The position numbers were made by a program, and so were the translations under genes. 64,000 nt of DNA from Patescibacteria group bacterium. Lineage in GTDB: Bacteria; Patescibacteriota; Minisyncoccia; Phycocordibacterales; JAKAEA01. The stretch covers positions 632,793 through 696,792 of the forward strand of contig JAZKCY010000001.1 in the NCBI GenBank assembly GCA_040387855.1, in the 5' to 3' direction. The notes under the pieces were generated by a model, which saw nothing but the letters and a program-made list of their open reading frames with translations, was not told where the DNA came from and searched no databases. This document shows positions 9,568-61,242 of the stretch, one piece after another. Position 1 is the first letter of the stretch. Every line of letters begins with the position of its first letter.

Positions 9568-10839
9568 ATGGATAAGGATCTCTCAATACTATGGGACGTA
9601 GCCGTAATTGGTGGAGGCCCAGCTGGAATGATGGCAGCAGGACGCGCAGCAGAACGCGGTCTTAAAGTTATTCTTATTGAGAAAAATGATTCTCTCGGAA
9701 AAAAACTTCTTATTACCGGTGGTGGACGCTGCAATGTAACGAACGGGGAATTGGATACCCGCACCCTTCTCTCAAAATTTAAAGACAACGATAAATTTTT
9801 GTTTTCAGCATTTTCTCAATGGAGTGTACAAGAAACGTTAGACTTTTTTCATATACACAATATGGAAACAAAAGAAGAAAAAGAAAAACGAGTCTTCCCT
9901 ATTTCAAATAAATCTCAGTCAGTGTGGAATGTGCTTGTCGAAAATCTCAAAAAGCATAATGTAACTATTCTTTCTAACTCACCCGTGATAGAAATCATTC
10001 GAGATTCTGAAAAGAATACTATTTCTGGAATAAAATTAAAGAATAATAAAACTATTACTGCGCACTCATATATAGTAGCAACTGGAGGAAAATCTCGACC
10101 AGAGACAGGCTCAACAGGAGATGGCTTCGTGTGGCTCAAAAAGCTTGGCCACGATGTCATTGAGCCAGAAGCATCATTAGTGCCTATTGAAGTAGAGGAT
10201 GCGTGGGTGAAGCGTTTGCAGGGTATCTCTATGCCTGAAGTGAAGATTACTCTTTTTCAGAATGAGATAAAACAAGACGTACAAAAAGGCAAAATTCTTT
10301 TTACACACTTTGGAATCTCAGGCCCAACTGTTTTAAATATGAGTAAGGATATTAGTGAGCTTTTAAAATACGGTGAAGTAATAATCTCAGTAGATGCACT
10401 TCCTGTGTATGATCCAGGAACTCTCAATCTTAAACTCCAAGAACTTTTACGTGGCAAAGATATAAACAAGAAACTTAAAAATGTATTAGATGAAATTATA
10501 CCTGCAGCACTTGTCGTACCAGTGCTCGAACTTTCAGCAGTAAACGGCGATACAGCAAGCAATAGTGTAACGCGAGAAGAGCGTCTCCAACTGGTAAAAA
10601 CACTAAAAGACATGCGGATGCGTGCCACAGGATTACTCGGGCTTGATAAAGCGATCATAACTTCAGGGGGAGTTTCTCTTGATGAAGTAGATTTTAAAAC
10701 TATGCGCTCTCGCCTATTCTCGAATTTATACTTAATTGGAGATGTTTTAAATATAGATAGACCATCAGGTGGCTATTCTTTGCAGCTCTGTTGGACCACA
10801 GGATTTGTAGCAGGAAATTCTATTTCTTCTTCTCAATAA
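9568..10839 (+). CDS. HI0933/BaiN-family FAD-dependent flavoprotein (aminoacetone-oxidase-like)
   Basis: Dinucleotide-binding motif VAVIGGGPAGMMAA. GGGRCNVTN is diagnostic of the HI0933-like family. Confidence 0.85.
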   Translation: MDKDLSILWDVAVIGGGPAGMMAAGRAAERGLKVILIEKNDSLGKKLLITGGGRCNVTNGELDTRTLLSKFKDNDKFLFSAFSQWSVQETLDFFHIHNMETKEEKEKRVFPISNKSQSVWNVLVENLKKHNVTILSNSPVIEIIRDSEKNTISGIKLKNNKTITAHSYIVATGGKSRPETGSTGDGFVWLKKLGHDVIEPEASLVPIEVEDAWVKRLQGISMPEVKITLFQNEIKQDVQKGKILFTHFGISGPTVLNMSKDISELLKYGEVIISVDALPVYDPGTLNLKLQELLRGKDINKKLKNVLDEIIPAALVVPVLELSAVNGDTASNSVTREERLQLVKTLKDMRMRATGLLGLDKAIITSGGVSLDEVDFKTMRSRLFSNLYLIGDVLNIDRPSGGYSLQLCWTTGFVAGNSISSSQ

Positions 10840-12481
10840 AGAGTCTTGCAAAACGCACTTCTGGAAAAGACACGGTATTCTTTAATAGAGTACGTACTGA
10901 GCCCAAACTATAATCTCCTGTAGTTTTATAAGACTCATGAAATGCATCAGTAATTTTCTTAAGTAATGCAGGTTTGATATTTGCAGCTTTCAAATACTCT
11001 ATATCTATATCGTGATTATCTTCTTGCAATGTTTCTATATGACTAATGATAGTCTCAACTTTTAGGTTCCGTTCTTTTGCCATTGCCTGAAGTGACATCT
11101 TCTTTTCAAGAAGCGCTTTGGTAATAATGTGAGTTTCAACCTTAATACTTTTCTTAGTGCGCATTACAGCAGCGGCGCGTGCAAGAAATTCATCTTGCTG
11201 TTTTTGTAATTCTTTTTGATCAACTTTTGAAAGTACTTGCTGAAGCTTCTTTGATTGCTCTTGGAGTTCTTCATCAAACATAAGTACATCTTCATCAACC
11301 TCTAAAGCCTGTTCGTTGATACCTAAGAGTTTTAAACCTGATAGAGATTTGAGCCGCGACAACGCCACATATCCCATACCCTTTTCAAATGATTTTGAAA
11401 GATCAATCTCTGCAGCATCGAGAGTCATTCCCTGACTTTTGTGAATAGTAATTGCCCAGGCCAAACGAAGTGGCACTTGTTTTACTTTTGCTTTTACCTT
11501 CCCATCATCTTCAATAGTCCATTCCATGGGTTCTGCTTTAATGATTTTGCCGCTTGCAGTTTTAATTATAGGAGACGTAATTCCACACTCAATAACCGTA
11601 CCCAATGTACCGTTTACATAGCCCACATCGTAATTGTTTTTAACAAACATTACCTGAGCACCCTTTTTGAGAGTTAACACACCCGGAGCAAGACAACTAT
11701 TTTTGATAGCAGCAACCAGTACATCACGACCCTCTTCATTCATAAAATAACTCCGTGCTTCGCCTTCGGTAGCGGCAAGTTCTTGAGCATTAATACCATC
11801 TACGTCTACATTGTGAGTAAAAAGTTTGGTGGGCTTTAGATCACCAATCAGTTCAGAATTAAATCTTTTATCTAAATGTGACCGCAATACATCAGAAACA
11901 GAATTTGTTCTAATTCCATTTAGGACATCCAAGAAGGCAGTATCTGTTTGACGATATGAACCTTCGAGATAACAAATCTTTAAATTCAAATTTTTCCATG
12001 CTTCTGATTTATAAATAAATTCAGCATCTTCTTCATGTGATTTTGAAACTGGTGGCAACTGAAAAAAATCACCACACAAAACCACCTGTAGTCCTCCAAA
12101 TGGCTTATCGTTTCGTTTGAAGAACCGCGCAATCTCATCAACGAGATCTAAGCGAAAATGATGGAGCATTGATACTTCATCAATAATCAGTACTTTTGTA
12201 TTCTTAAATCTTTCCCATAAATATCTTTTTTCTTCCATTGCTTCCAAATCATAAGGAGTCAATGTATTGCGAATTCCAAGTCCAGACCATGAATGAATAG
12301 TCACACCATTCATATGACTGGCAGCAATTCCTGTTGAGGCAGTAACGGCATGAGCAATTTCATGCTTTTTTAAATACTGAATGTATTGATTGAGCACATA
12401 AGTCTTTCCACTACCGGCAGAACCTGTGAGATAGACATTATGTCCAAGTTTTAAAATGTTGAGTGCGTCTGTTTGAGTCAC
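10820..12481 (-). CDS. Pif1/RecD-like SF1 DNA helicase with C-terminal helical/HTH-like tail
   Basis: Walker A is GSAGSGKTY, with DEVSM and IHKSQGMTLD motifs. ~170 extra C-terminal residues. Confidence 0.85.
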   Translation of the reverse strand: MTQTDALNILKLGHNVYLTGSAGSGKTYVLNQYIQYLKKHEIAHAVTASTGIAASHMNGVTIHSWSGLGIRNTLTPYDLEAMEEKRYLWERFKNTKVLIIDEVSMLHHFRLDLVDEIARFFKRNDKPFGGLQVVLCGDFFQLPPVSKSHEEDAEFIYKSEAWKNLNLKICYLEGSYRQTDTAFLDVLNGIRTNSVSDVLRSHLDKRFNSELIGDLKPTKLFTHNVDVDGINAQELAATEGEARSYFMNEEGRDVLVAAIKNSCLAPGVLTLKKGAQVMFVKNNYDVGYVNGTLGTVIECGITSPIIKTASGKIIKAEPMEWTIEDDGKVKAKVKQVPLRLAWAITIHKSQGMTLDAAEIDLSKSFEKGMGYVALSRLKSLSGLKLLGINEQALEVDEDVLMFDEELQEQSKKLQQVLSKVDQKELQKQQDEFLARAAAVMRTKKSIKVETHIITKALLEKKMSLQAMAKERNLKVETIISHIETLQEDNHDIDIEYLKAANIKPALLKKITDAFHESYKTTGDYSLGSVRTLLKNTVSFPEVRFARLFIEKKK

Positions 12482-23873: not shown

Positions 23874-24014
23874 CTAGTCACTGACGTAAAATTGCCATGT
23901 GAGTTACACAATTTCTACTTACATAATGAATTTTGGATTATGAAAAGCAACTCATTTGACTAATATTATTTCATATTGCATTATTTACAGCGTACTCGTA
24001 CAAAGGAGCCTTAT

Positions 24015-24512
24015 ATGTGGCGATGGATTCGTAGGGTTGTATATGTCTTCCTCTTACCCATAGGAATCGTTTTCCTCGGTTGGGAGACTAAGGACCTCAT
24101 TCGGGGTCTTAGTCGAAATCCACTTTCATGGGTCATCGTACCCTTGGCGTGGATTGGGATTGGTTTATTGGTCTACAACACCGCCAAAGTAAAGCGGAGG
24201 GTTTACTTCAAACGCAGCAAGAGCAGCGATCCCCTCAAGCATGGGTATTTCGTTAACAGGAAAAAGTCTCATCTGATCATTTTCCCGTTTTACTCCGACG
24301 AAACGGCAATCGCAGCGCTTGACCAACTGATAGCACAGGGGTTGGTGCCAGCACAAGAACGACCGTGGCTTCTTGAAGAAATTCAGAGGCTCAAGCTTCC
24401 AGAAAAGACGTGGCCAGCTGAACGTGCAAGGATTCAAGCTATGCAACACGCACTAGCCATACGTTGGCTAATAGTTGTTGGAGTTGTGAATCTGCACCAT
24501 CAAAATAACTAA
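24015..24512 (+). CDS. hypothetical membrane protein, compositionally atypical (G+C elevated)
   Basis: Strong SD AAGGAG 8 nt before the ATG at 24015. Two N-terminal TM helices. G+C is visibly higher than its neighbours. A terminator follows. Confidence 0.5.
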   Translation: MWRWIRRVVYVFLLPIGIVFLGWETKDLIRGLSRNPLSWVIVPLAWIGIGLLVYNTAKVKRRVYFKRSKSSDPLKHGYFVNRKKSHLIIFPFYSDETAIAALDQLIAQGLVPAQERPWLLEEIQRLKLPEKTWPAERARIQAMQHALAIRWLIVVGVVNLHHQNN

Positions 24513-31807: not shown

Positions 31808-31870
31808 AGAGTGAGTGTAAGGCTGTTTAGGTAATAAAACAACTTAAAGTATGTTTAACGCTTAAGACTA

Positions 31871-31899
31871 TTGACACAACTCATAAAATATATCAATAT
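31871..31899 (+). promoter_or_regulatory. candidate sigma70-like promoter upstream of the high-GC gene
   Basis: TTGACA at 31871-31876, a 17-nt spacer, then CAATAT; a TATACT lies just after. ~65 nt upstream of the ATG at 31966, in AT-rich host-like sequence. Confidence 0.3.
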
Positions 31900-31965
31900 A
31901 CTCTCTGGAAAGATCTGACATCGGAGCGTTTTCGATGATCAGAAAGATACGTAAGGGACGATACC

Positions 31966-32739
31966 ATGACCAAAGCCACGGCTTCAGCGTCGATTCCCAC
32001 CACCACCACTCTCAACCTCCGTGACTTCGAGGTCCCCCACCCGACCAGCCGCGACAACTTCGTCGTCAGCGTCGGCATCGGGACCAAGAGCCTCGACGAC
32101 AACGGCTTCGTGACCGACAACATGCCGTTCATCGAGCAGGTCCAGCGGCGGGCACGTCGCCACACCTCCGAGGGAGTGGCGCACGCTATCGGAGACATGA
32201 CCATCAGCTACCTCGACCGCCGCATCCGTCAGGTCGTGATCGAGGTCAAGAACACTGCCAGCCGCTTCACCCTGAAGCAGCCGAAAGTGCTCGAGCTCGA
32301 CCCACAGCCCAGCCTGCCGCAAGGGTTCGACACGTTCCGGATCGATGGCCTCTCTGTGGAGGCAGAGCTGAGCGACAACCACGTGTGCGGTGGGTACGAC
32401 GGCCAGTTCCGCTGCGACCTGAGGTATACTGCCGCCGACGGGAAGAACCGCTCCACCGCGATCACCGACGTGATCCGACGCGCCTTCCAGAGCAAGACCT
32501 ACACGGCGAGCTGCGAGCAGCTCACCCAGGGCATCGTCTACCAGGCATGCCAGGTCTTGGGCAGCCAGGGGCTCCACGTCATCGGTCGGGTCTACAACCT
32601 GACCGGCTACGCCGAGACCCACTGGAACTCCAGGCTCGTGGTACCGGAGATGCCGCGAGAGTCAACCTGTGGCGAGGTGCGCGAGTCCAAGCCGTCCAGG
32701 TCCTCGAGCTCCAGCGAACGCAGCATGAGCTGGTGCTGA
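31966..32739 (+). CDS. hypothetical protein encoded in a high-GC island (foreign composition)
   Basis: I counted 40/60 G+C at 32041-32100, against 16/60 at 601-660. SD TAAGGGA before the ATG; a host-like terminator follows. The protein is not Lys/Ile/Asn-biased like the neighbours. No motif recognised. Confidence 0.6.
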   Translation: MTKATASASIPTTTTLNLRDFEVPHPTSRDNFVVSVGIGTKSLDDNGFVTDNMPFIEQVQRRARRHTSEGVAHAIGDMTISYLDRRIRQVVIEVKNTASRFTLKQPKVLELDPQPSLPQGFDTFRIDGLSVEAELSDNHVCGGYDGQFRCDLRYTAADGKNRSTAITDVIRRAFQSKTYTASCEQLTQGIVYQACQVLGSQGLHVIGRVYNLTGYAETHWNSRLVVPEMPRESTCGEVRESKPSRSSSSSERSMSWC

Positions 32740-32777
32740 TCAGGCTCTAACGTGGACTCTTCGTTCTTCAACCCAGT

Positions 32778-32808
32778 GCGTAAGCTCCCATAGCTTATGC
32801 ATTTTTTA
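32778..32808. terminator. bidirectional intrinsic terminator
   Basis: GCGTAAGCT-cccat-AGCTTATGC 9-bp stem followed by ATTTTTTATTT. Lies between the convergent genes. Confidence 0.65.
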
Positions 32809-32809
32809 T

Positions 32810-33145
32810 TTAAAATAATTTACCACCTACTAACGCAGTATTTTTATCTGGCACACTTAATGTGACCTTCCCATTTACATCAGGAGTTCCTAGAGTAAGC
32901 ACTTCAGATTCAAATGGACCAATCTTACGTGGTGGAAAATTAACTACTCCCAACACAAGTTTCCCTATTAGCTCTTCTTTTGAATAAGTACTTACAATCT
33001 GGACAGAAGAATTTTTGATTCCTATCTCAGAGCCAAAATCTATTTTTAATTTATATGCAGGCTTCTTTGCTTCTGGGAAATCATTAACTTCTAAGATCTT
33101 TCCCACACGAATATCTAGTTTCAAAAAATCATCAATTGTTGCCAT
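32810..33145 (-). CDS. tRNA-binding domain protein (CsaA/Trbp111-like, OB fold)
   Basis: MATIDDFLKLDIRVGKILEV…KPAYKLKIDFG is typical of CsaA/EMAP-II-like tRNA-binding domains. Start moved to the internal ATG to avoid overlapping the upstream stop. Confidence 0.8.
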   Translation of the reverse strand: MATIDDFLKLDIRVGKILEVNDFPEAKKPAYKLKIDFGSEIGIKNSSVQIVSTYSKEELIGKLVLGVVNFPPRKIGPFESEVLTLGTPDVNGKVTLSVPDKNTALVGGKLF

Positions 33146-33156
33146 AAATAAGTTTG

Positions 33157-33603
33157 CTAGTTGGTATTTTTGATCTCTTGGCGTATTTCTTCCCACATTC
33201 GCCCCATATGATTTTCTCCCTTGCCATCAATTCCATCATCCCAAAATCCATCGCCAGGAGGAGGTGTAACTATATGTTTTACTATTTTCAGATCTCCTGA
33301 ATCAATAAGTGCTTGGCGTACATCCTGATGCTGATCCACTTTAAGTTTCATGATTTTTTTCATGACACCCAGTTTAAATTCAGCTTGTTTAAATTCTGGA
33401 ATTTGAAATTCTTTATATTTTGAAGAAACAGTCCAAGCTTTCACAGGGCTCTGTGCAGCTCTTATTTCATCTTTAATCTTTTGATCGGTATAACGCTCAC
33501 ATTGATATACATGTTCTACTGTGGGATATACGACAGCATCAAGTTCGATAACATGAGCTGTATATGGTGAAAAGTAAATATAAAAAATTTCTAATGGGAG
33601 CAT
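33157..33603 (-). CDS. NADAR-domain protein (YbiA-like N-glycosidase)
   Basis: YPTVEHVYQCERY and GDGFWDDGIDGKGENHMGRMW match NADAR signatures. Start moved to the second Met, leaving a 4-nt gap to the upstream CYTH stop. Confidence 0.7.
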   Translation of the reverse strand: MLPLEIFYIYFSPYTAHVIELDAVVYPTVEHVYQCERYTDQKIKDEIRAAQSPVKAWTVSSKYKEFQIPEFKQAEFKLGVMKKIMKLKVDQHQDVRQALIDSGDLKIVKHIVTPPPGDGFWDDGIDGKGENHMGRMWEEIRQEIKNTN

Positions 33604-33607
33604 AAAG

Positions 33608-34156
33608 TTACGGTAGTTTATGATCAAGATTATTTTTCAACCATACCAACGTATCATATCCATTCAATACCCGATCTTCTTTTTTTACTCCCATAGTTTG
33701 TAGGAATTCAAATAACTCATCTTGCACTTTATTAGAATCCTCATCAGTAATCTTTTCTACTTCAACAAACGAGCCCAATCCTTCTACCTCATCAAGACAA
33801 ATTTCGTAATCCAAATAATTGGTTTTCTGACGAGTCTTTTTTACCTGCACTTCCGGACGGAATCCTAGGAATGTAATAATATCCTGAAGCTGTGATGCAT
33901 CATTTACTATAATTTCTCGTTCTATAGAACTAAGCTCTTCGCCTTTTTTATAGGTAAAGATAATCTGTCCTTTTGCTTTTCGAATGCGCAGAAAAGAATC
34001 TCCTGGACTAAATTGAATAAATGGTCGATCATAATTTATAAAAATAGTATCCTCTTGAGTAACAGGTTCTGAAAGAGTGCAGCCCAAAGCAATAAGGCCT
34101 TCTTTAAGTCTTTCAAAATCTCCCACCTTTGCCTTTACTTCGATCTCTTTTTTCAT
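33608..34156 (-). CDS. CYTH-domain protein (class IV adenylyl cyclase / triphosphate tunnel metalloenzyme family)
   Basis: N-terminal ExExK (EIEVKAKV), then R.R.K.G further on, and an acidic EVEGLGSFVEVEK near the C-terminus. Confidence 0.75.
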   Translation of the reverse strand: MKKEIEVKAKVGDFERLKEGLIALGCTLSEPVTQEDTIFINYDRPFIQFSPGDSFLRIRKAKGQIIFTYKKGEELSSIEREIIVNDASQLQDIITFLGFRPEVQVKKTRQKTNYLDYEICLDEVEGLGSFVEVEKITDEDSNKVQDELFEFLQTMGVKKEDRVLNGYDTLVWLKNNLDHKLP

Positions 34157-34229
34157 GGAAGTAGTATAGCAAAATAATTCAGGTATAAAAAAAGCACAGA
34201 ATTACCCGTGCCAACAACCAACAAGAACA

Positions 34230-34925
34230 CTACAGCACGATCACCACGATGGGCACCGTCTTCTGCCACCCGATGACCAGCTTCCACCCCTTGCGGAAGC
34301 ACACCTTCGACCACGGCCCGGCCGCTCGGAGCAAGCCGTTGACAGTCGGGAACTCGTGAGCGATCGACTGCATCAGCAGCTCGTGGAGGAAAGGCTCCTC
34401 CTCGACCAGCTGGTGCATCAGATCCATCTTGCGGGATCCCAGGTGACCACGGCTGTCCAACTGCTCGTTGAGGGTGTTGAGCCGGTTGCACACCCCTCGA
34501 TAGACGCGGTAGAGCCGGCGGAGGTTCGGCGACATGACGCCGACTTCCACTTCCATGCCCATCATCTCGCGCTTAGGCCCGATGTTGATGTCGGCACCGT
34601 GCATGCGCTCGGCGACATTCTGGACCTTGTGGATCTGCGAGAGGGTGAGTTTGATGCACGTCTCCAGCGTCGCGATCTGCTCGCTGACGACCAGCGCGGT
34701 GTCGACGGATACCTGCTCGAATGGATAGCCGACGAAGTAGTTGTCGTTGGGGATGATCGTAAGGTCGACCATCCGAAACAACAACAAGGTCCGCTGTTGC
34801 CACGTGAGATTCTCCCGAAGACGCAGCAGAAGCTGATCCATCGCCTGGGTCATCACCCGCTTCCTCGGCATGAACCAGTGGGGCCTCCGTCGAGATCGGG
34901 TCTGTCTTCGCGTTTGAGTCTGCAT
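34230..34925 (-). CDS. hypothetical protein with Arg-rich N-terminus, encoded in a high-GC island
   Basis: I counted 36/60 G+C at 34561-34620. GGAGG SD 8 nt before the ATG at 34925 (MQTQTRRQTRSRRRP…). The track ORF extends to 34961 with no SD. The antisense ORF 34356-34973 has a GC-shadow composition. Confidence 0.5.
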   Translation of the reverse strand: MQTQTRRQTRSRRRPHWFMPRKRVMTQAMDQLLLRLRENLTWQQRTLLLFRMVDLTIIPNDNYFVGYPFEQVSVDTALVVSEQIATLETCIKLTLSQIHKVQNVAERMHGADINIGPKREMMGMEVEVGVMSPNLRRLYRVYRGVCNRLNTLNEQLDSRGHLGSRKMDLMHQLVEEEPFLHELLMQSIAHEFPTVNGLLRAAGPWSKVCFRKGWKLVIGWQKTVPIVVIVL

Positions 34926-35056
34926 TGCGATTCCTCCGGTTGCAGGGTTAGATTGGAACATGAGCTACGTTAGCTCAGCGGTTGAGTACGATACCATATA
35001 TATCCAACATGTCAACATGGATATATTATTGTGTCAAATTGCGATAAAATACCAAC

Positions 35057-44209: not shown

Positions 44210-44764
44210 CTATCTCTTTTCAAACGCCATCATAAACATTCCAGGTGATTCAACTATTTCAGTTTTCTTTAGCACATCTTTAAGAAATAATTCTATAATT
44301 TCTTTTGCCTTAGATACTTCAGTTCTATCTTCCACATCTATTTCAGCCTCAGTAAAAAATCGCATACTAGGAGAGTGATCAAACTTTACACTATCTATAG
44401 TTAGGCTTATGGGAGTGCTTTGGTATTCTCCAGCAAACCATTCTCTATCTTTTATTATTTTTATAGCATCAGGATATTGTGCTATCACAGATTTAAATTC
44501 TGGTTCTGTAACTTCATGTTCATTCTCTCTTCGAGCCGGTTGATCATCTACAATTTCCCAAATCTTTTCTGTATAAATATATTTCCCTGCTTCCTCTCGG
44601 TAGCGCTTTAAATCATATCCCTTATATTGAGACTTTTTAGCTTCAATATAATAGTCATTTTGTGGAGTCATACCCTTAGCAACAAAACCTCGCGCTTTAA
44701 ATTCAGCAATGAGATTTTCTTTGTCTTCTGCAGTAAGCTCTACTTTTAGTTCAACTTCGTACAT
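44210..44764 (-). CDS. CYTH-domain protein (second paralog)
   Basis: Begins MYEVELKVELT (ExExK) and has an acidic EAEIDVED near the C-terminus. The track ORF runs to 44851, but that extension lies in the foreign high-GC segment and overlaps the ABC gene. Confidence 0.65.
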   Translation of the reverse strand: MYEVELKVELTAEDKENLIAEFKARGFVAKGMTPQNDYYIEAKKSQYKGYDLKRYREEAGKYIYTEKIWEIVDDQPARRENEHEVTEPEFKSVIAQYPDAIKIIKDREWFAGEYQSTPISLTIDSVKFDHSPSMRFFTEAEIDVEDRTEVSKAKEIIELFLKDVLKKTEIVESPGMFMMAFEKR

Positions 44765-44808
44765 ATATAAATCATAGCATAAAAAAAGAGCATCACGAGG
44801 ATGCTCTG

Positions 44809-46602
44809 TTACCCTACCACTTCCGTGGGTTGGGTGTTGTACTGCTGCCACAACACTAAGAATTCAGGACACGTACGGATGAGCTGTGCCAACGTGCCGG
44901 TAGCGACCAATTGCCCCTCATGAAAGAAGTGAATCACATCAAACATGTGGAGTAGGTGCAGCCGATGAATTGACGAGATCACCGTCTTATCCAAGAACGC
45001 GTTGAAGATGTTGGTGTACACCTTCTTCTCTGTAGCCGTATCCAAGCTCGATGTGGGTTCATCGAGTAGCACGACCTCCTTGTCGTGACAGGCCAGGAGC
45101 CCGCGTGCAAGCGCCAGGCGCTGCTTTTGGCCACCTGAGAGATTGACTCCGCGCTCCTTGAGGGACGAATCTAGTCCTTTCGGCAACAAAGCGGCAACAT
45201 CGGTGAAGCACGCCATGTCGGTGTAACGACGGACCAAGTCCGAATCGTACTCCGCACCGAGGGTGATGTTTTCAATCACCGTCGTCCCAAAGATGTCGGG
45301 ATCCTGCGGCAAAAGTCCAATTGCTCGGCAAATGCCATCAAACCCGTCTTCGATTTCGTGATCATCCACAAAGAGTTTCAAGCTCTGCGGACGATGGAGA
45401 CCTCGTACGACTTTGAGCAATGTCGACTTGCCGCTTCCACTTGCTCCCACAAGTGCAACGCGCGACCCACGTGTGATGTCGAACGCTACATTTGCCAAGT
45501 GTAGTCCCGTACCATTATCTGCGTACGAGAAGTTGAGATCCCTCACTTCCATGCGTTGCCAATCCTTTCGCAACACATGGTTAGCAAGGTTATCTTCTTT
45601 GAAGTCGTCAGCCACTTCCTCGGCATTCGCGATGCGTGATGTTCCCACCACGACATCTTTGTACATGCCGGTGAAGCGAAAGAAAACTTCGCTCATTTCA
45701 TCCAAGTACTTGATGAGGATGTAGACCGTGCCCACGAGCACTGCCTTCGGTGTTTCCATATGCTGCCAAACGTACAGCCCCAAGACAAGCATTGTCATGG
45801 CGGCGGTACAGAAGGTAGTAAGGAACCACTTTATCTCGTTAAGCGTTGTGTTCCGCTTAAAGAGATCATACGGCTTGTCGACCCTGTGACAGATCGCCTC
45901 GAACACCAGTCGCTCAACGCGCAGAATGATCACGGTTGCAATGTTTGAGATTGTGTCAAAAACATTCTCCGAAATCTCGTTCTCTGCTTTGTTGAGTTTC
46001 CGATATTGAGGGATCATCACTCGATCGAACTTGATCGTGAAGAATATGGACAGACACATCATTCCGACGACGATTGGAATCGACATCGGAAAAAAGTATC
46101 CGAGCATAATGAAACTCCCCACGAGCTGTATGAAGGCATAGACGATCTGGAACGACATCGACGAAAACTGATAGAGTGCCGAAGCACCTTTTTCAATCTT
46201 GTCGATGGTGTCGCCAGAGTGATGCTCCACATGCCATTCCAATGGCAGGGTCATCGTGCCTTTGAGCAAGTACTTCCGGTAGTTCGCACGGGACTTAAAC
46301 GCATTCAGGGTTTCCCAAACGCGCGCAGGACCGTGAAAAGCCCAGAAGACCATCTTGGTCACAAACATCCACACCAACAACTTGATGAGTGTGGGCATGC
46401 TGTCGACGGTGATTCCCTCAGCCTGGATCTCATTCATGATCTTCGCCCCCAACAGAGGCAAGAAAAAGAGCATGATCGAGATCGCAATGATGAAGAAGCC
46501 CCAGTACAGGGCCACACTCTTGCGGTTGCCCGCTGAGTAGTGCCACGTCTTCCAGAACAGGTACACGAACGGATTTCCGTTCCTGTGAGGCTTCTTGAAC
46601 AT
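44809..46602 (-). CDS. fused TMD-NBD ABC exporter, high-GC (foreign composition)
   Basis: Six N-terminal TM helices. Walker A GASGSGKST, signature LSGGQKQRLALARGL, Walker B VVLLDEPTSSLD. I counted 40/60 G+C at 45061-45120. AAAGGA SD upstream of the ATG. Confidence 0.85.
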   Translation of the reverse strand: MFKKPHRNGNPFVYLFWKTWHYSAGNRKSVALYWGFFIIAISIMLFFLPLLGAKIMNEIQAEGITVDSMPTLIKLLVWMFVTKMVFWAFHGPARVWETLNAFKSRANYRKYLLKGTMTLPLEWHVEHHSGDTIDKIEKGASALYQFSSMSFQIVYAFIQLVGSFIMLGYFFPMSIPIVVGMMCLSIFFTIKFDRVMIPQYRKLNKAENEISENVFDTISNIATVIILRVERLVFEAICHRVDKPYDLFKRNTTLNEIKWFLTTFCTAAMTMLVLGLYVWQHMETPKAVLVGTVYILIKYLDEMSEVFFRFTGMYKDVVVGTSRIANAEEVADDFKEDNLANHVLRKDWQRMEVRDLNFSYADNGTGLHLANVAFDITRGSRVALVGASGSGKSTLLKVVRGLHRPQSLKLFVDDHEIEDGFDGICRAIGLLPQDPDIFGTTVIENITLGAEYDSDLVRRYTDMACFTDVAALLPKGLDSSLKERGVNLSGGQKQRLALARGLLACHDKEVVLLDEPTSSLDTATEKKVYTNIFNAFLDKTVISSIHRLHLLHMFDVIHFFHEGQLVATGTLAQLIRTCPEFLVLWQQYNTQPTEVVG

Positions 46603-55152: not shown

Positions 55153-55257
55153 GATTCTTTTAGTATCTCATTAAAAATAAAACACGGCTATACGTATGTG
55201 CACATAGTATGGGAATAAAAATCCCCGGGTCTTGGTAGGCTCGGAGGGTACATATTG

Positions 55258-55986
55258 CTACACAGTCACGAGATCACTCCCCACAAGCTCGGTAGCTTCG
55301 TCGGCTAGCACACTCACGGCGCTTGCCGGTGCGTACCGAATGAGGATGAGCTCGTATGCGCAGCCGGATGTCACGAAGGCATCGTCCACGGGCATCACGG
55401 CTTCGACGTCTTGGTACCTTTCGTGATTGCGAGGAAGCGGCGGCTTCTGGGCTTTGCGAGCCCACTCGTCGATTGTCTCGCGGAACACGGCGATGACGAT
55501 GGTGCCCACAGCAGTCGTCTCACGAAACATCCTTGCAACGTGTGACTGCTGATTGCCCTTGGCGACAAACGGTATGAGCGTGCGTTTTTTGCGCCAGCCC
55601 TTCACCGTCCCGCCGTTTTCTTCGCCAACGTTGAAGATGTAGTTGGCTGTGTCGTCCCAGCAGACCGCTGAGTCAACATCTTCATACACGGGCACGATCT
55701 CGCTGTCGCTCACCGACAAGCCGTCGACGCCCATCGAGCACTGGTGGCTCGCAACAGGATCGATGACGCCGATCACAATCTCAAACTGCTCGCCCTGCTC
55801 GAGAGGGATGTAGCGGAAGTACCTATCCGCATCTCGGGGCCCGATTCCCACCACATCAGCGAGAGCCTTTGGTTGGAAAAATCTCACCTTGCGTACAGGA
55901 TCGCCACGCGCAGTGACAACGTTGATTCCCACGGTGATGAGATCACCGCGAAATACATCGGTGCCATTGGGGTTGCTTGTGTTCAC
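55258..55986 (-). CDS. hypothetical protein encoded in a high-GC island (GTG start)
   Basis: I counted 37/60 G+C at 55441-55500. GTG start is preceded by an AGGAG SD 7 nt upstream. No motif recognised. Confidence 0.5.
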   Translation of the reverse strand: MNTSNPNGTDVFRGDLITVGINVVTARGDPVRKVRFFQPKALADVVGIGPRDADRYFRYIPLEQGEQFEIVIGVIDPVASHQCSMGVDGLSVSDSEIVPVYEDVDSAVCWDDTANYIFNVGEENGGTVKGWRKKRTLIPFVAKGNQQSHVARMFRETTAVGTIVIAVFRETIDEWARKAQKPPLPRNHERYQDVEAVMPVDDAFVTSGCAYELILIRYAPASAVSVLADEATELVGSDLVTV

Positions 55987-56090
55987 GAAGCACTCCTGCC
56001 CGGTAGGGCTGTAAGAGATATAAGAGGCAACAATGGATGAACAAACTCACTACCATAAGTATGACAAATATGGTTGAGCGGCACAATCAT

Positions 56091-56537
56091 TTACTCACAT
56101 CCCCATCCATCATTGTCTCGGTCAAGATCAAATTCATCATAGCCGAGTACCTGTACTTTCCCAGTATAATTTGGTCCATTGCCTGATCCGCTTCTACAAT
56201 CATAATCCCCGGCGCCAATTTTCAAACATCCAGAATAATTTGTATTACATACAGGTTCTGATTTCGGTTCAGGTGGAGGAACTGGTTTTGGAGTCGGTGC
56301 AGGAGTTGGAGTAGGTACTGGTGTAGATTCAGGTTTTGCTACGGATTGAGCAACAGGTTTAACTTCTGGTGGTATTGCTGGCTCCTTTTTTACTTCAGGT
56401 GTTTTTTCTGCAGCCTGATTCTGAAAAGGCATCACTACAGCTGCTGGCTGAGGTGATTGGACTGCTGAGGTATCTGACATTCCAGCCATTACAACAAACG
56501 CACCAATGATTCCTGCTCCAATAAGTAGTTTTTTCAT
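56091..56537 (-). CDS. secreted Pro-rich protein with C-terminal Excalibur calcium-binding domain
   Basis: Signal peptide, PTPTPAPTPKPVPPP linker, then CNTNYSGC…DYDC…DRDNDGWGCE (the Excalibur DxDxDGxxCE loop). Confidence 0.7.
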   Translation of the reverse strand: MKKLLIGAGIIGAFVVMAGMSDTSAVQSPQPAAVVMPFQNQAAEKTPEVKKEPAIPPEVKPVAQSVAKPESTPVPTPTPAPTPKPVPPPEPKSEPVCNTNYSGCLKIGAGDYDCRSGSGNGPNYTGKVQVLGYDEFDLDRDNDGWGCE

Positions 56538-56546
56538 ACAAAGACT

Positions 56547-58109
56547 TTATCTCGAATTTAAATTTCTTTTAAAATATTCTCTAAGATCAGGATCAACTAT
56601 ATATACATATGTACCTAGAATACCTCGAGTTAATAATGTCTTATAAATATTAATCACATATCTTTTTAACTCTTCAGGATCATTTACCCCTCTATGTCCA
56701 TTTGTATCGTGATATTTATTTTTATTAACAGATATTTCTTTTCTTACTGAGTCATAATATATTTCTGGACCAATAATCACACCTGTGTAATTTAAATCAT
56801 ACCCTTGAATTGTATGAATACATCCCACCTCATTAATTGAGTTCTTTGAATTAACCCAATCATGAATTTGAGAATTCCAAAATAGTTTAGTGTTCTCAAT
56901 TACAATATCAGGAATACCTTTATTAGTTTTTGAAATCCACCTCCAGGCATACCCTGCAACTAATCTACTTATCTGATGCTCTTTATCTTTCTCTTTAATA
57001 TCCTCAACCATCTTATCTAGATCATCATATATCTTGAAATCATAATCTGAAAAATTAGCTTTTACATCTACTTTTGCTTCTAATAATTTATCAATGAAGT
57101 CTATGTACTCTTGTCCCCCTTTTACTCTCATCTGTGTCTTCAATTCAAAGCTGATTGGATTTGTTTTAAGCACTTTTGTCATTGAGACATCTGAAGGACG
57201 TACTGATTGCCGCTCATCATAAAAAAGCACAACATGTTTTGCTGATTGGACTATCCAATCGAGTTCTGTGCCTTCATTGTCCAATCCCAACTTTCTATTT
57301 GTGGCGTCAAAGCTTCCATAATTTGGAATGTTTTTTCTCTGACGTAACCGGTGGGTTTCATCTACAACTACTATGTCATATTGCTTTTGAGTTATTTCAT
57401 TAGGGCCTATCACCATTGATGAATCGAGACCAGGAATACTTCTAAACACTTTTTTGAGTGTTTGTCTTAATGAGGTCATTGCAATCACTATAGCAACATT
57501 TGTATTTCCAAGTTCAACAAGTCTTTTTATAAGAAAAGTAGCTAGAATTGTTTTACCTGTACCTGGTCCGCCATGAATAATATAAGTTTGCTTTTTATCT
57601 TCCTTGAAATACTCAAGGAGCTTCATCGCTATTAAATACTGATCATCGGTAAGTGTTTTATATGGTGAGTATTTAAAAATATCGCTATTTCTAATTTGAA
57701 GAAGATCGTTTTTTGCTAGCTTTTTTTCCTGAAGTGTCTTCCACAAAAGTTCAAATTTGGTTTTATATCTTTCTCTATCAAAATAATCATGATTCTGAAG
57801 ACCTGCATTTCCATTTTGTAGAATGTACTGTCCATCAGCAACCATATATTCAATGAGAGAAGATTCAGTATCTAGAGTTGCAGACTTGTTAAACTCATCA
57901 TCAGATATGATATGAATTTTATTTAATTGTTTTCTACTTTGATTATCTAAATGTTGTTTAGTACGACTATATACGCGAACGGTCTCACCGACATAGAGTT
58001 CTTTTCCATTTTCTATAAGATACACTACAGGCCAGCCACTTCCATACTTGGAGGTGCGTATTGTTTCAACTCCAGCTTGATCAAAAGGAAATGTCTTTAT
58101 GTCAGACAT
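56547..58109 (-). CDS. GIY-YIG nuclease domain fused to DUF2075 / Schlafen-like P-loop ATPase
   Basis: The N-terminus VVYLIENGKELYVGETVRVYSRTKQH is a GIY-YIG core. The central region has GGPGTGKT (Walker A) and VVVDETHRL (DExH-like Walker B), in the DUF2075 arrangement. Confidence 0.8.
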   Translation of the reverse strand: MSDIKTFPFDQAGVETIRTSKYGSGWPVVYLIENGKELYVGETVRVYSRTKQHLDNQSRKQLNKIHIISDDEFNKSATLDTESSLIEYMVADGQYILQNGNAGLQNHDYFDRERYKTKFELLWKTLQEKKLAKNDLLQIRNSDIFKYSPYKTLTDDQYLIAMKLLEYFKEDKKQTYIIHGGPGTGKTILATFLIKRLVELGNTNVAIVIAMTSLRQTLKKVFRSIPGLDSSMVIGPNEITQKQYDIVVVDETHRLRQRKNIPNYGSFDATNRKLGLDNEGTELDWIVQSAKHVVLFYDERQSVRPSDVSMTKVLKTNPISFELKTQMRVKGGQEYIDFIDKLLEAKVDVKANFSDYDFKIYDDLDKMVEDIKEKDKEHQISRLVAGYAWRWISKTNKGIPDIVIENTKLFWNSQIHDWVNSKNSINEVGCIHTIQGYDLNYTGVIIGPEIYYDSVRKEISVNKNKYHDTNGHRGVNDPEELKRYVINIYKTLLTRGILGTYVYIVDPDLREYFKRNLNSR

Positions 58110-61171: not shown

Positions 61172-61242
61172 CTGCGGGACTAGGACTCGAACCTAGATAC
61201 TCAGGACCAAAACCTGATGTCCTACCATTAGACGATCCCGCA
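61172..61242 (-). tRNA. tRNA-Gln: tRNA-Gln (anticodon UUG)
   Basis: Hand-folded cloverleaf. Acceptor TGCGGGA/TCCCGCA with U1:A72 and G73 discriminator; D-stem GTCT/GGAC; anticodon stem TCAGG/CCTGA with loop TTTTGGT; T-stem CTAGG/CCTAG with loop TTCGAGT. No encoded CCA. Confidence 0.85.

Follow-up and report, generated by a model that had tools for sequence, protein, structure and literature searches.

Island A is a GC-rich block holding one gene near the middle of the window, the whole 64,000-nucleotide (nt) stretch of DNA analysed here (positions 632,793 to 696,792 of contig JAZKCY010000001.1, forward strand, in which all positions below are counted from the first letter), taken from the metagenome-assembled genome (MAG) GCA_040387855.1 of a Patescibacteria group bacterium. 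Its open reading frame (ORF) at 31966..32739 (+) encodes a bimodular T-fold protein of 257 amino acids (aa) plus stop from an ATG start. It fills an intergenic space bounded by a NUDIX gene and a tRNA-binding-domain gene, and its neighbours on one side (DUF5684, APP1 phosphatase, DAG kinase and NUDIX) and on the other (tRNA_bind, NADAR, CYTH and P-type ATPase) are of host composition. Guanine plus cytosine (G+C, GC) makes up 37.5% of the window overall and 36.2% with GC-rich patches excluded. The ORF reaches 64.1%, the maximum among all 774-nt windows (mean 0.375, standard deviation 0.05), and island A exceeds its surroundings by 28 percentage points. Samples of 60 nt range from 0.57 to 0.73 G+C within the ORF and have a 5th/50th/95th percentile of 0.25/0.37/0.48 outside the islands; the 67% given for one such sample in an earlier note on this DNA was thus a fair value, but its host figure of about 27% was wrong, as the background lies at 36% and 27% is reached only in the AT-rich tail. 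Likelihood change points at 31975 and 32790 set sharp boundaries to the island, with G+C stepping from 0.37 to 0.635 and then to 0.33, and the GC-rich block is therefore the ORF together with its 3' untranslated region up to the terminator stem.

In the annotated frame, G+C at codon positions 1/2/3 is 0.57/0.48/0.88, as expected of a genuine coding frame at high GC. In the island's 212-aa antisense ORF the values are 0.89/0.44/0.60, a codon-position signature that identifies it as a shadow frame, and the long antisense ORFs had rightly been taken for GC-shadow artefacts. G+C at third codon positions (GC3) is 0.88 for the island A gene versus a host median of 0.252 (interquartile range 0.22–0.29; 73 window genes), and its relative synonymous codon usage (RSCU) is anticorrelated with that of host genes (r = −0.44), so that the codon-usage comparison proposed in the earlier note sets the gene clearly apart from its host.

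The gene is framed by expression signals of its own, and the earlier note's view of them as host-like stands. A sigma-70-type promoter-like element at 31871..31899 (+) comprises a −35 box TTGACA (31871-31876), a 17-nt spacer and a −10 box CAATAT (31894-31899), with the −35 box 95 nt 5' of the ATG. This element is present as first described, though its −10 box is weak (3/6 consensus positions) and it was not called by a consensus promoter scan, which called a weaker TTAAGA-N16-TAAAAT at 31862-31889 instead. The occurrence of TTGACA is informative in this Patescibacterium genome, since the hexamer is about 3.5-fold under-represented in the window (16 copies versus 55.5 ± 8.3 expected from shuffles) and 8 of the 16 copies are intergenic, though intergenic DNA makes up roughly 5% of the window; several of these intergenic copies stand ahead of good −10 boxes before host genes. 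These patterns suggest that the bacterium uses a canonical −35 box purged from coding DNA, and a host promoter signal thereby becomes readable from sequence alone, through depletion and intergenic bias.

Promoter and gene are separated by a 66-nt 5' leader (31900..31965, +) of intermediate GC (about 45–49%), which carries a Shine-Dalgarno-like AAGGGA (31953-31958, +) 7 nt ahead of ATG 31966, in agreement with the Shine-Dalgarno sequence first noted for the 257-aa ORF. A riboswitch or known RNA in the leader was considered and dropped, with no Rfam family at E ≤ 10 and a hairpin no stabler than shuffles (z −0.9). The intrinsic terminator (32775..32809, +) begins 36 nt 3' of the ORF and consists of a 12-bp stem with a 5-nt loop (32775-32803) and the U-tract UUUUUUAUUU, which abuts the stop codon (32810) of the convergent tRNA-binding-domain gene. 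With a folding energy of −14.5 kcal/mol (z −6.7; 0/200 shuffles fold equally well), it is as clean a stem-loop and T-run as had been claimed for it. On the minus strand, as read from the sequence, no U-run follows the hairpin.

The encoded protein is identical to NCBI MES2437103.1 (V4519_03745, 'MAG: hypothetical protein', Patescibacteria group bacterium), encoded on a 981,549-bp contig. An exact-sequence look-up of contigs for it yielded no record. An AlphaFold2 monomer model based on an alignment of 14 homologues (predicted local distance difference test score (pLDDT) 84.6, predicted template modelling score (pTM) 0.83) comprises two beta-beta-alpha-alpha-beta-beta modules (residues about 13–105 and 123–221), a short helix and a low-confidence tail. 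In the model, the modules have the four-stranded antiparallel sheet with two helices on one face that characterises a T-fold module, and the best full-length Foldseek match is the bimodular QueF of V. cholerae (E 4.5e-4, 251 columns; 4iqi/3s19), with viral T-fold proteins giving only distant matches. The statement of the earlier note that the protein matches nothing recognisable consequently fails at the level of fold, but it stands for Pfam, NCBIfam, PHROGs, PADLOC and PDB sequences, where no meaningful match was obtained: the Pfam search returned nothing at E ≤ 0.01, and the only weak matches, a PHROG tail terminator (E 0.21) and a PDB Zn-ATPase (E 1), were taken as chance.

A word-indexed search of 5.8 billion proteins returned one (P0002, 36% identity), a HMMER scan of 1.84 billion cluster representatives with a two-sequence profile returned 74 proteins at E ≤ 1e-3, and further profile searches brought the family to 101 sequences in all, the set used for the signature counts below. 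A first Joint Genome Institute (JGI) metagenome scan gave no family match. Most members are single-domain proteins of 140–190 aa that align with the C-terminal half of the island A protein, and about 14 are two-domain like it. The tripeptide signature [AGS]SCE is present in 98/101 members and CG[GNTW] in 91/101, and the terminal residue is Cys in 85/101 (65/79 in another count), preceded by a charged tail of variable length. Searched against PDB, the family profile matched only Iml3/CENP-L (E 0.055), and a larger profile matched nothing; the resemblance of this yeast kinetochore protein is to profile A2 positions 170–218 ('SCE.LA.G...YN.TG.A') and is probably due to chance.

The two modules of the island A protein have kept different parts of these signatures. 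The N-terminal T-fold module (32002..32280, +; residues about 13–105) retains the LDxxGFVTDN loop (LDDNGFVTDN, residues 43–52) and Arg86, with G47, V49 and R86 as its invariant columns, and lacks the Cys loop and Ser-Cys-Glu. The C-terminal T-fold module (32332..32697, +; residues about 123–244) lacks the GFV loop and retains Cys141 (in the VCGGYDG loop) and Ser182-Cys183-Glu184 at the start of helix alpha-2, as well as Gly214 and Trp220. It is followed by a Ser/Arg-rich, low-confidence tail (32698..32736, +; residues 245–257, pLDDT <50 for 246–257) that ends in Cys257. In single-domain members, all these motifs lie within one module. Profile comparison of the N-module with the single-domain family profile (hhalign probability 99.3%, E 1e-20) and tblastn of residues 9–116 against a single-domain homologue (E 7e-6) identify the N-module as a degenerate copy of the family domain, an internal duplication. 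Such complementary loss of motifs would be expected if the active sites spanned the module interfaces, as they do in other bimodular T-fold enzymes. In T-fold enzymes, a conserved Glu or Gln anchors a purine or pterin substrate at the module interface, and the modules oligomerise into a beta-barrel tunnel. Alignment and model place the invariant Glu184 where helix alpha-2 of the C-module begins, and on our reading of the sequences it would be equivalent to the substrate-anchoring Glu of known T-fold enzymes.

This conservation bears on whether the ORF is a gene at all. A captured functionless fragment, open only through the paucity of stop codons in GC-rich DNA and in the process of being lost, might be suspected from the antisense and alternative frames of the island, which also give ORFs of 88–212 aa, and from a codon usage opposite to that of the host. 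All invariant or near-invariant residues (G47, V49, R86, C141, S182, C183, E184, G214, W220 and C257) are nevertheless intact, the AlphaFold2 model is of high confidence, GC3 periodicity marks the annotated frame, and a promoter, a Shine-Dalgarno sequence and a strong terminator are predicted from the sequence. Partly ameliorated intact copies in other genomes further imply long retention, and we regard a decaying fragment as rather unlikely.

The family belongs to the T-fold superfamily but to none of its characterised families, from which the absence of the defining motifs of QueD/PTPS and QueF sets it apart. QueF of V. cholerae (4iqi/3bp1) resembles the island A protein in having two tandem T-fold modules per chain (about 257–259 aa), a conserved Cys and a Glu at a helix start. 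It differs in sequence (about 10% identity), and the island A family has an additional invariant Cys beside the Glu as well as a C-terminal Cys, with no queuosine-pathway neighbours at its loci. Membership of QueF was rejected, as the motif E(S/L)K(S/A)hK(L/Y)(Y/F/W) occurs in 0/101 members, even with the type II bimodular architecture in place. QueD is defined by the zinc motif CxxxHGH, with two Zn-binding His and a catalytic Cys (PMC10516641). Neither CxxxHGH nor HGH occurs in any member (0/101) and no Pfam match reaches the gathering score, so that membership of QueD/PTPS (PF01242, COG0720) was likewise rejected, with PF01242 being the commonest weak Pfam match (5/60 members, best E 0.0074). 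The family shares with QueD/PTPS the T-fold module and, on our reading of the sequences, the order of motifs, namely a Cys loop, a G-aromatic-V-x-D loop and an x-S/T-x-E helix start. An hhalign comparison with E. coli QueD (14% probability; the QueD sequence used was verified against 4ntm at E 1.7e-84) places the family Cys141 on the catalytic Cys27 and GFV on GWII. The FolB family (dihydroneopterin aldolase/FolX epimerase) differs, at 9–18% identity, with a weak FolB Pfam match in 1/60 members, and the family Cys and Ser-Cys-Glu signature were not found in FolB matches. The island A protein is thus closest to bimodular QueF in architecture and to QueD/PTPS in motif order, and fails the defining motif of each. 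None of the characterised T-fold enzymes shares its signature of Cys loop, Ser-Cys-Glu and terminal Cys, and an unnamed family, about 100 strong and without sequence matches in Pfam, NCBIfam or PDB, gains a fold and a signature, which makes it a target for enzymology.

Relatives of the island A gene occur in two kinds of genomic setting (loci are numbered with the prefix L). The first comprises GC-rich contigs, several of them phage-like, in which the gene is at home. On two contigs of about 95 kb and 61% GC (L021, L022), the family gene has a GC3 of 0.80–0.83 that matches its surroundings, where numerous ORFs without annotation accompany genes, all on the same strand, for a sigma-70 region-2 protein, DNA polymerase B, a RecA-like protein and a metallophosphatase. 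A 21.7-kb locus of 58% GC (L015/L020) carries an HNH endonuclease, two PHROG families and a GNAT, and contigs of 29–70 kb and 58% GC (L005-L007) carry an exonuclease (phrog_69) and a 360-aa adenylosuccinate-synthase-like gene. In these three longer GC-rich contig groups, the family gene is the sole shared content. Five short contigs (L001, L013, L014, L016 and L017) have 54–62% GC. The 360-aa adenylosuccinate-synthase-like protein adjoins a PD-(D/E)XK nuclease in L005 (13282-13714), the contig of the single-domain homologue P0076, and in L006, and its size is suggestive of phage PurZ.

In the second setting, cellular genomes, the family gene stands out from its neighbours. At 7/8 cellular loci, other Patescibacteria included, it forms a GC-rich single-gene island, with GC3 values of 0.77 against neighbours of 0.33–0.57 in L019 (the same protein is also on a 553-kb NCBI contig), 0.64 against 0.28–0.41 in L008 (Candidatus Parcubacteria), 0.53 against 0.11–0.26 in L009, 0.53 against 0.16–0.35 in L010 and 0.52 against 0.26–0.30 in L011/L012, which represent the same locus in two assemblies; in L018, the gene (0.61) is nearly host-like (neighbours about 0.41–0.62). 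Expression signals follow the same division. TTGAC lies within 150 nt upstream of the family gene at 8/8 cellular loci versus 0/4 phage-like loci, the full pattern TTGACN-N16-18-NANNNT is found upstream at 6/8 cellular loci versus 3% of shuffles, and a hairpin with T-run, judged by eye, lies 3' of the gene at 7/8 cellular loci. On the 54%-GC contig L001, an AT-rich TTGACT-N16-TATAAT patch precedes the family gene, so the promoter may move along with the gene rather than be supplied by the host. No conserved partner gene was found across the 16 loci compared, with neighbours differing at every locus, and the protein most likely acts alone.

Recurrence of this arrangement also bears on the integrity of the assembly. 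The abrupt shifts in composition and the origin of the sequence from a MAG would suit an assembly chimera or binning contamination, in which a 0.8-kb GC-rich piece had been spliced into a Patescibacteria contig. Such a join normally leaves one breakpoint and not a gene-sized insert inside a 981-kb contig, and the foreign piece here coincides exactly with a single gene unit, flanked by intact host genes and bounded at either end by host-type signals. Two further single-gene islands lie in the window, and the family forms islands of the same kind in independent NCBI, JGI, European Nucleotide Archive (ENA) and Logan assemblies (L011 and L012 being one locus assembled twice), which argues against a one-off chimera. 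An artefact of this kind is extremely improbable.

The same distribution can be asked whether the gene is foreign or merely unusual. Long-term residence of the gene, its high GC being kept up for example through selection on DNA or mRNA or through a GC-biased process, would account for the family gene being GC-richer than its host at 7/8 cellular loci, with no copy below 50% GC among those found here and several at intermediate GC3 (0.52–0.64). The GC excess, however, sits at synonymous third positions, the intermediate GC3 values fit an amelioration series, the L018 copy is nearly host-like, and the sole close Patescibacteria genome lacks synteny at the island A locus. The anomaly is moreover shared by two unrelated islands in the window, an argument for import rather than for a peculiarity of the island A gene, and we consider long residence distinctly unlikely.

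These two islands, B and C, have each a single ORF on the minus strand. Island B (patch 34189-34991; ORF 34230-34961, −) encodes 243 aa at a GC of 0.60 and GC3 of 0.83 and shares the anatomy of island A, with TTGACA boxes at 35015 and 35037 and a hairpin with T-run at 34212-34193; its protein has no match in Pfam, NCBIfam, PHROGs, PADLOC or phage genomes. Island C (patch 55206-56032; ORF 55258-55986, −) encodes 242 aa from a GTG start at a GC of 0.58 and GC3 of 0.69, with no family match and no promoter- or terminator-like site called. The codon usage of islands A, B and C is mutually alike (RSCU r 0.52–0.77) and unlike that of the host (r −0.14 to −0.44). The idea that the three are paralogues was dropped, as their proteins share no similarity, and GC-rich ORFs adjoining the homologues were considered as relatives of island B or C, with none found to be related.

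The anatomy of island A recalls that of phage morons, which are independent transcription units inserted in phage genomes, a concept of Juhala and Hendrix. By definition, a moron has its own promoter and terminator together with a deviant GC (PMC3594210). Island A is alike in that its one gene comes with a promoter and a factor-independent terminator of its own and differs in GC from the genes around it, and its family is otherwise found in phage-like contigs; it is unlike a moron in standing between cellular housekeeping-type genes of a Patescibacteria chromosome and not in a phage or prophage. That the island is nonetheless part of a prophage, a defence island or a larger mobile element, and thus a true moron, is an idea to which this anatomy (PMC3594210), the phage association of the family and a Schlafen-type helicase near island C lend some weight. 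The neighbours of island A are, however, ordinary cellular genes of host composition, with no integrase, capsid or terminase among the scanned genes around it, no direct or inverted repeats of note flanking it and no convincing target-site duplication or terminal inverted repeat. There was also no meaningful PHROG match, and the PADLOC-DB defence hidden Markov models gave no match at E ≤ 1 for the proteins of islands A, B and C or for two homologues. Of the usual marks of a genomic island (integrase or transposase, adjacent tRNA, flanking direct repeats), none is seen at this single gene; the only Rfam match in the window at gathering score is a tRNA gene at 61172-61242 (−; 61.2 bits). A larger mobile element is accordingly very improbable.

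Taken together, the cassette is foreign in composition, intact and self-contained, and its family matches GC-rich phage-like contigs in composition and forms an island in low-GC genomes. We therefore favour, as the likely explanation, that island A is a horizontally acquired promoter-Shine-Dalgarno-gene-terminator cassette encoding a bimodular member of an undescribed T-fold family native to phage-like contigs of roughly 58–61% GC. Acquisition from a high-GC donor, as put forward in the earlier note, is supported by GC3, the negative RSCU correlation, the GC-rich homes of the family and the parallel islands. The DNA would have come from a GC-rich phage or from the GC-rich host of that phage, entered plausibly via natural transformation and integrated by illegitimate recombination with no dedicated recombinase, and its arrival would be recent enough for codon usage to have stayed unameliorated. 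The GC3 spread of the cellular copies, from 0.88 down to 0.52, would reflect successive stages of amelioration, the window copy being one of the youngest.

Several observations weigh against this explanation. An empty site was sought in the nearest genomes (L002 and L003, with DAGK 61–62% identical) and not found; synteny with them is limited to the DAGK-APP1 pair (58–62% identity), and, with no empty site or sister genome, only composition marks the arrival as recent. No integrase, repeat or other trace of an insertion mechanism was found flanking island A. The family was not found in INPHARED cultured phages, in PLSDB plasmids (tblastn) or in two scans of IMG/VR, and it is thus gene content only that assigns the native contigs to phages. 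Long ORFs also remain open by chance in GC-rich DNA. As for function, an enzymatic role is suggested by the modelled fold and the conserved residues; the profile comparison with E. coli QueD stays at the 14% probability given above, and the profile finds no PDB sequence.

If the protein behaves as its fold suggests, it would form a barrel, as other T-fold enzymes do, and have its active sites where modules meet. Cys141 and Cys183-Glu184 would then come from the C-module and the GFVTDN loop from the N-module, and Cys257 would be brought in on the flexible tail. Glu184 may bind a planar purine- or pterin-like substrate, with Cys141 and Cys183 taking part in catalysis or metal binding, and the protein would act alone on a purine- or pterin-like heterocycle. 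A more specific scenario, which we hold to be doubtful, is that of a stand-alone T-fold enzyme of phage origin with a Cys/Cys-Glu pocket and a swinging C-terminal Cys (a Cys3-type metal site or a resolving thiol), acting on a purine-, deazapurine- or pterin-like metabolite in phage-host conflict, whose cassette has been captured repeatedly by ultra-small Patescibacteria, possibly at preferred sites (for example beside the tRNA-binding gene). If true, this would reveal a path by which genes of GC-rich phages, or of the bacterial hosts of the epibionts, reach genomes of the Candidate Phyla Radiation (CPR).

Foreign genes in Patescibacteria are already known, with hundreds of transfers of individual genes reported across 125 Patescibacteria genomes, mostly within the phylum and older (3.9–34.5% divergence) (PMC12455944), and Saccharibacteria are naturally competent, with com genes conserved across CPR (PMC10633639). 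Like those genes, island A is a foreign gene in a streamlined Patescibacteria genome; unlike them, it is unameliorated and came from a donor of very different composition. The island alone is thus an ordinary kind of event, gene capture, and not a new kind of system. The protein is new within a known fold superfamily, and its capture recurs in an unusual pattern. This recurring GC-rich single-gene unit offers a modest natural series in which gene flow and amelioration in epibiotic bacteria can be studied, perhaps usable to infer the GC class of the hosts of epibionts or of the phages of those hosts.

Some observations concern the places at which family members are found. A T-fold family member lies within 0–3 genes of an orthologous tRNA_bind gene (56% identity) both in the window (32810-33196) and in L008 (3523-4032), and the T-fold proteins concerned differ, being a 257-aa bimodular protein in the window and a 176-aa single-domain protein in L008; the vicinity of tRNA_bind could be an insertion hotspot. 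DUF1801 genes are found near the family gene in L008 and L001.

Other compositional outliers were noted elsewhere in the window. An ABC exporter (ABC_membrane plus ABC_tran; 44809-46602, −) has 51% GC and a GC3 of 0.67, far above host level, and is probably another imported gene. The two CYTH genes of the window (33608-34156 and 44210-44851, both −) lie directly downstream, on the same strand, of island B and of the ABC exporter, respectively, an adjacency to GC-rich foreign genes that may be coincidence or a preferred insertion context. The Schlafen group-3 helicase gene (56547-58109) lies just past the upstream neighbour of island C (56091-56537). A 178-aa ORF at 23976-24512 (+; GC 0.47, GC3 0.49, no Pfam match) is a milder outlier. 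In L003, the DAG kinase-APP1 pair (10001-11888) is AT-richer (about 0.31–0.42) than most of its surroundings (mostly 0.41–0.55), and this pair may therefore itself be mobile among Patescibacteria.

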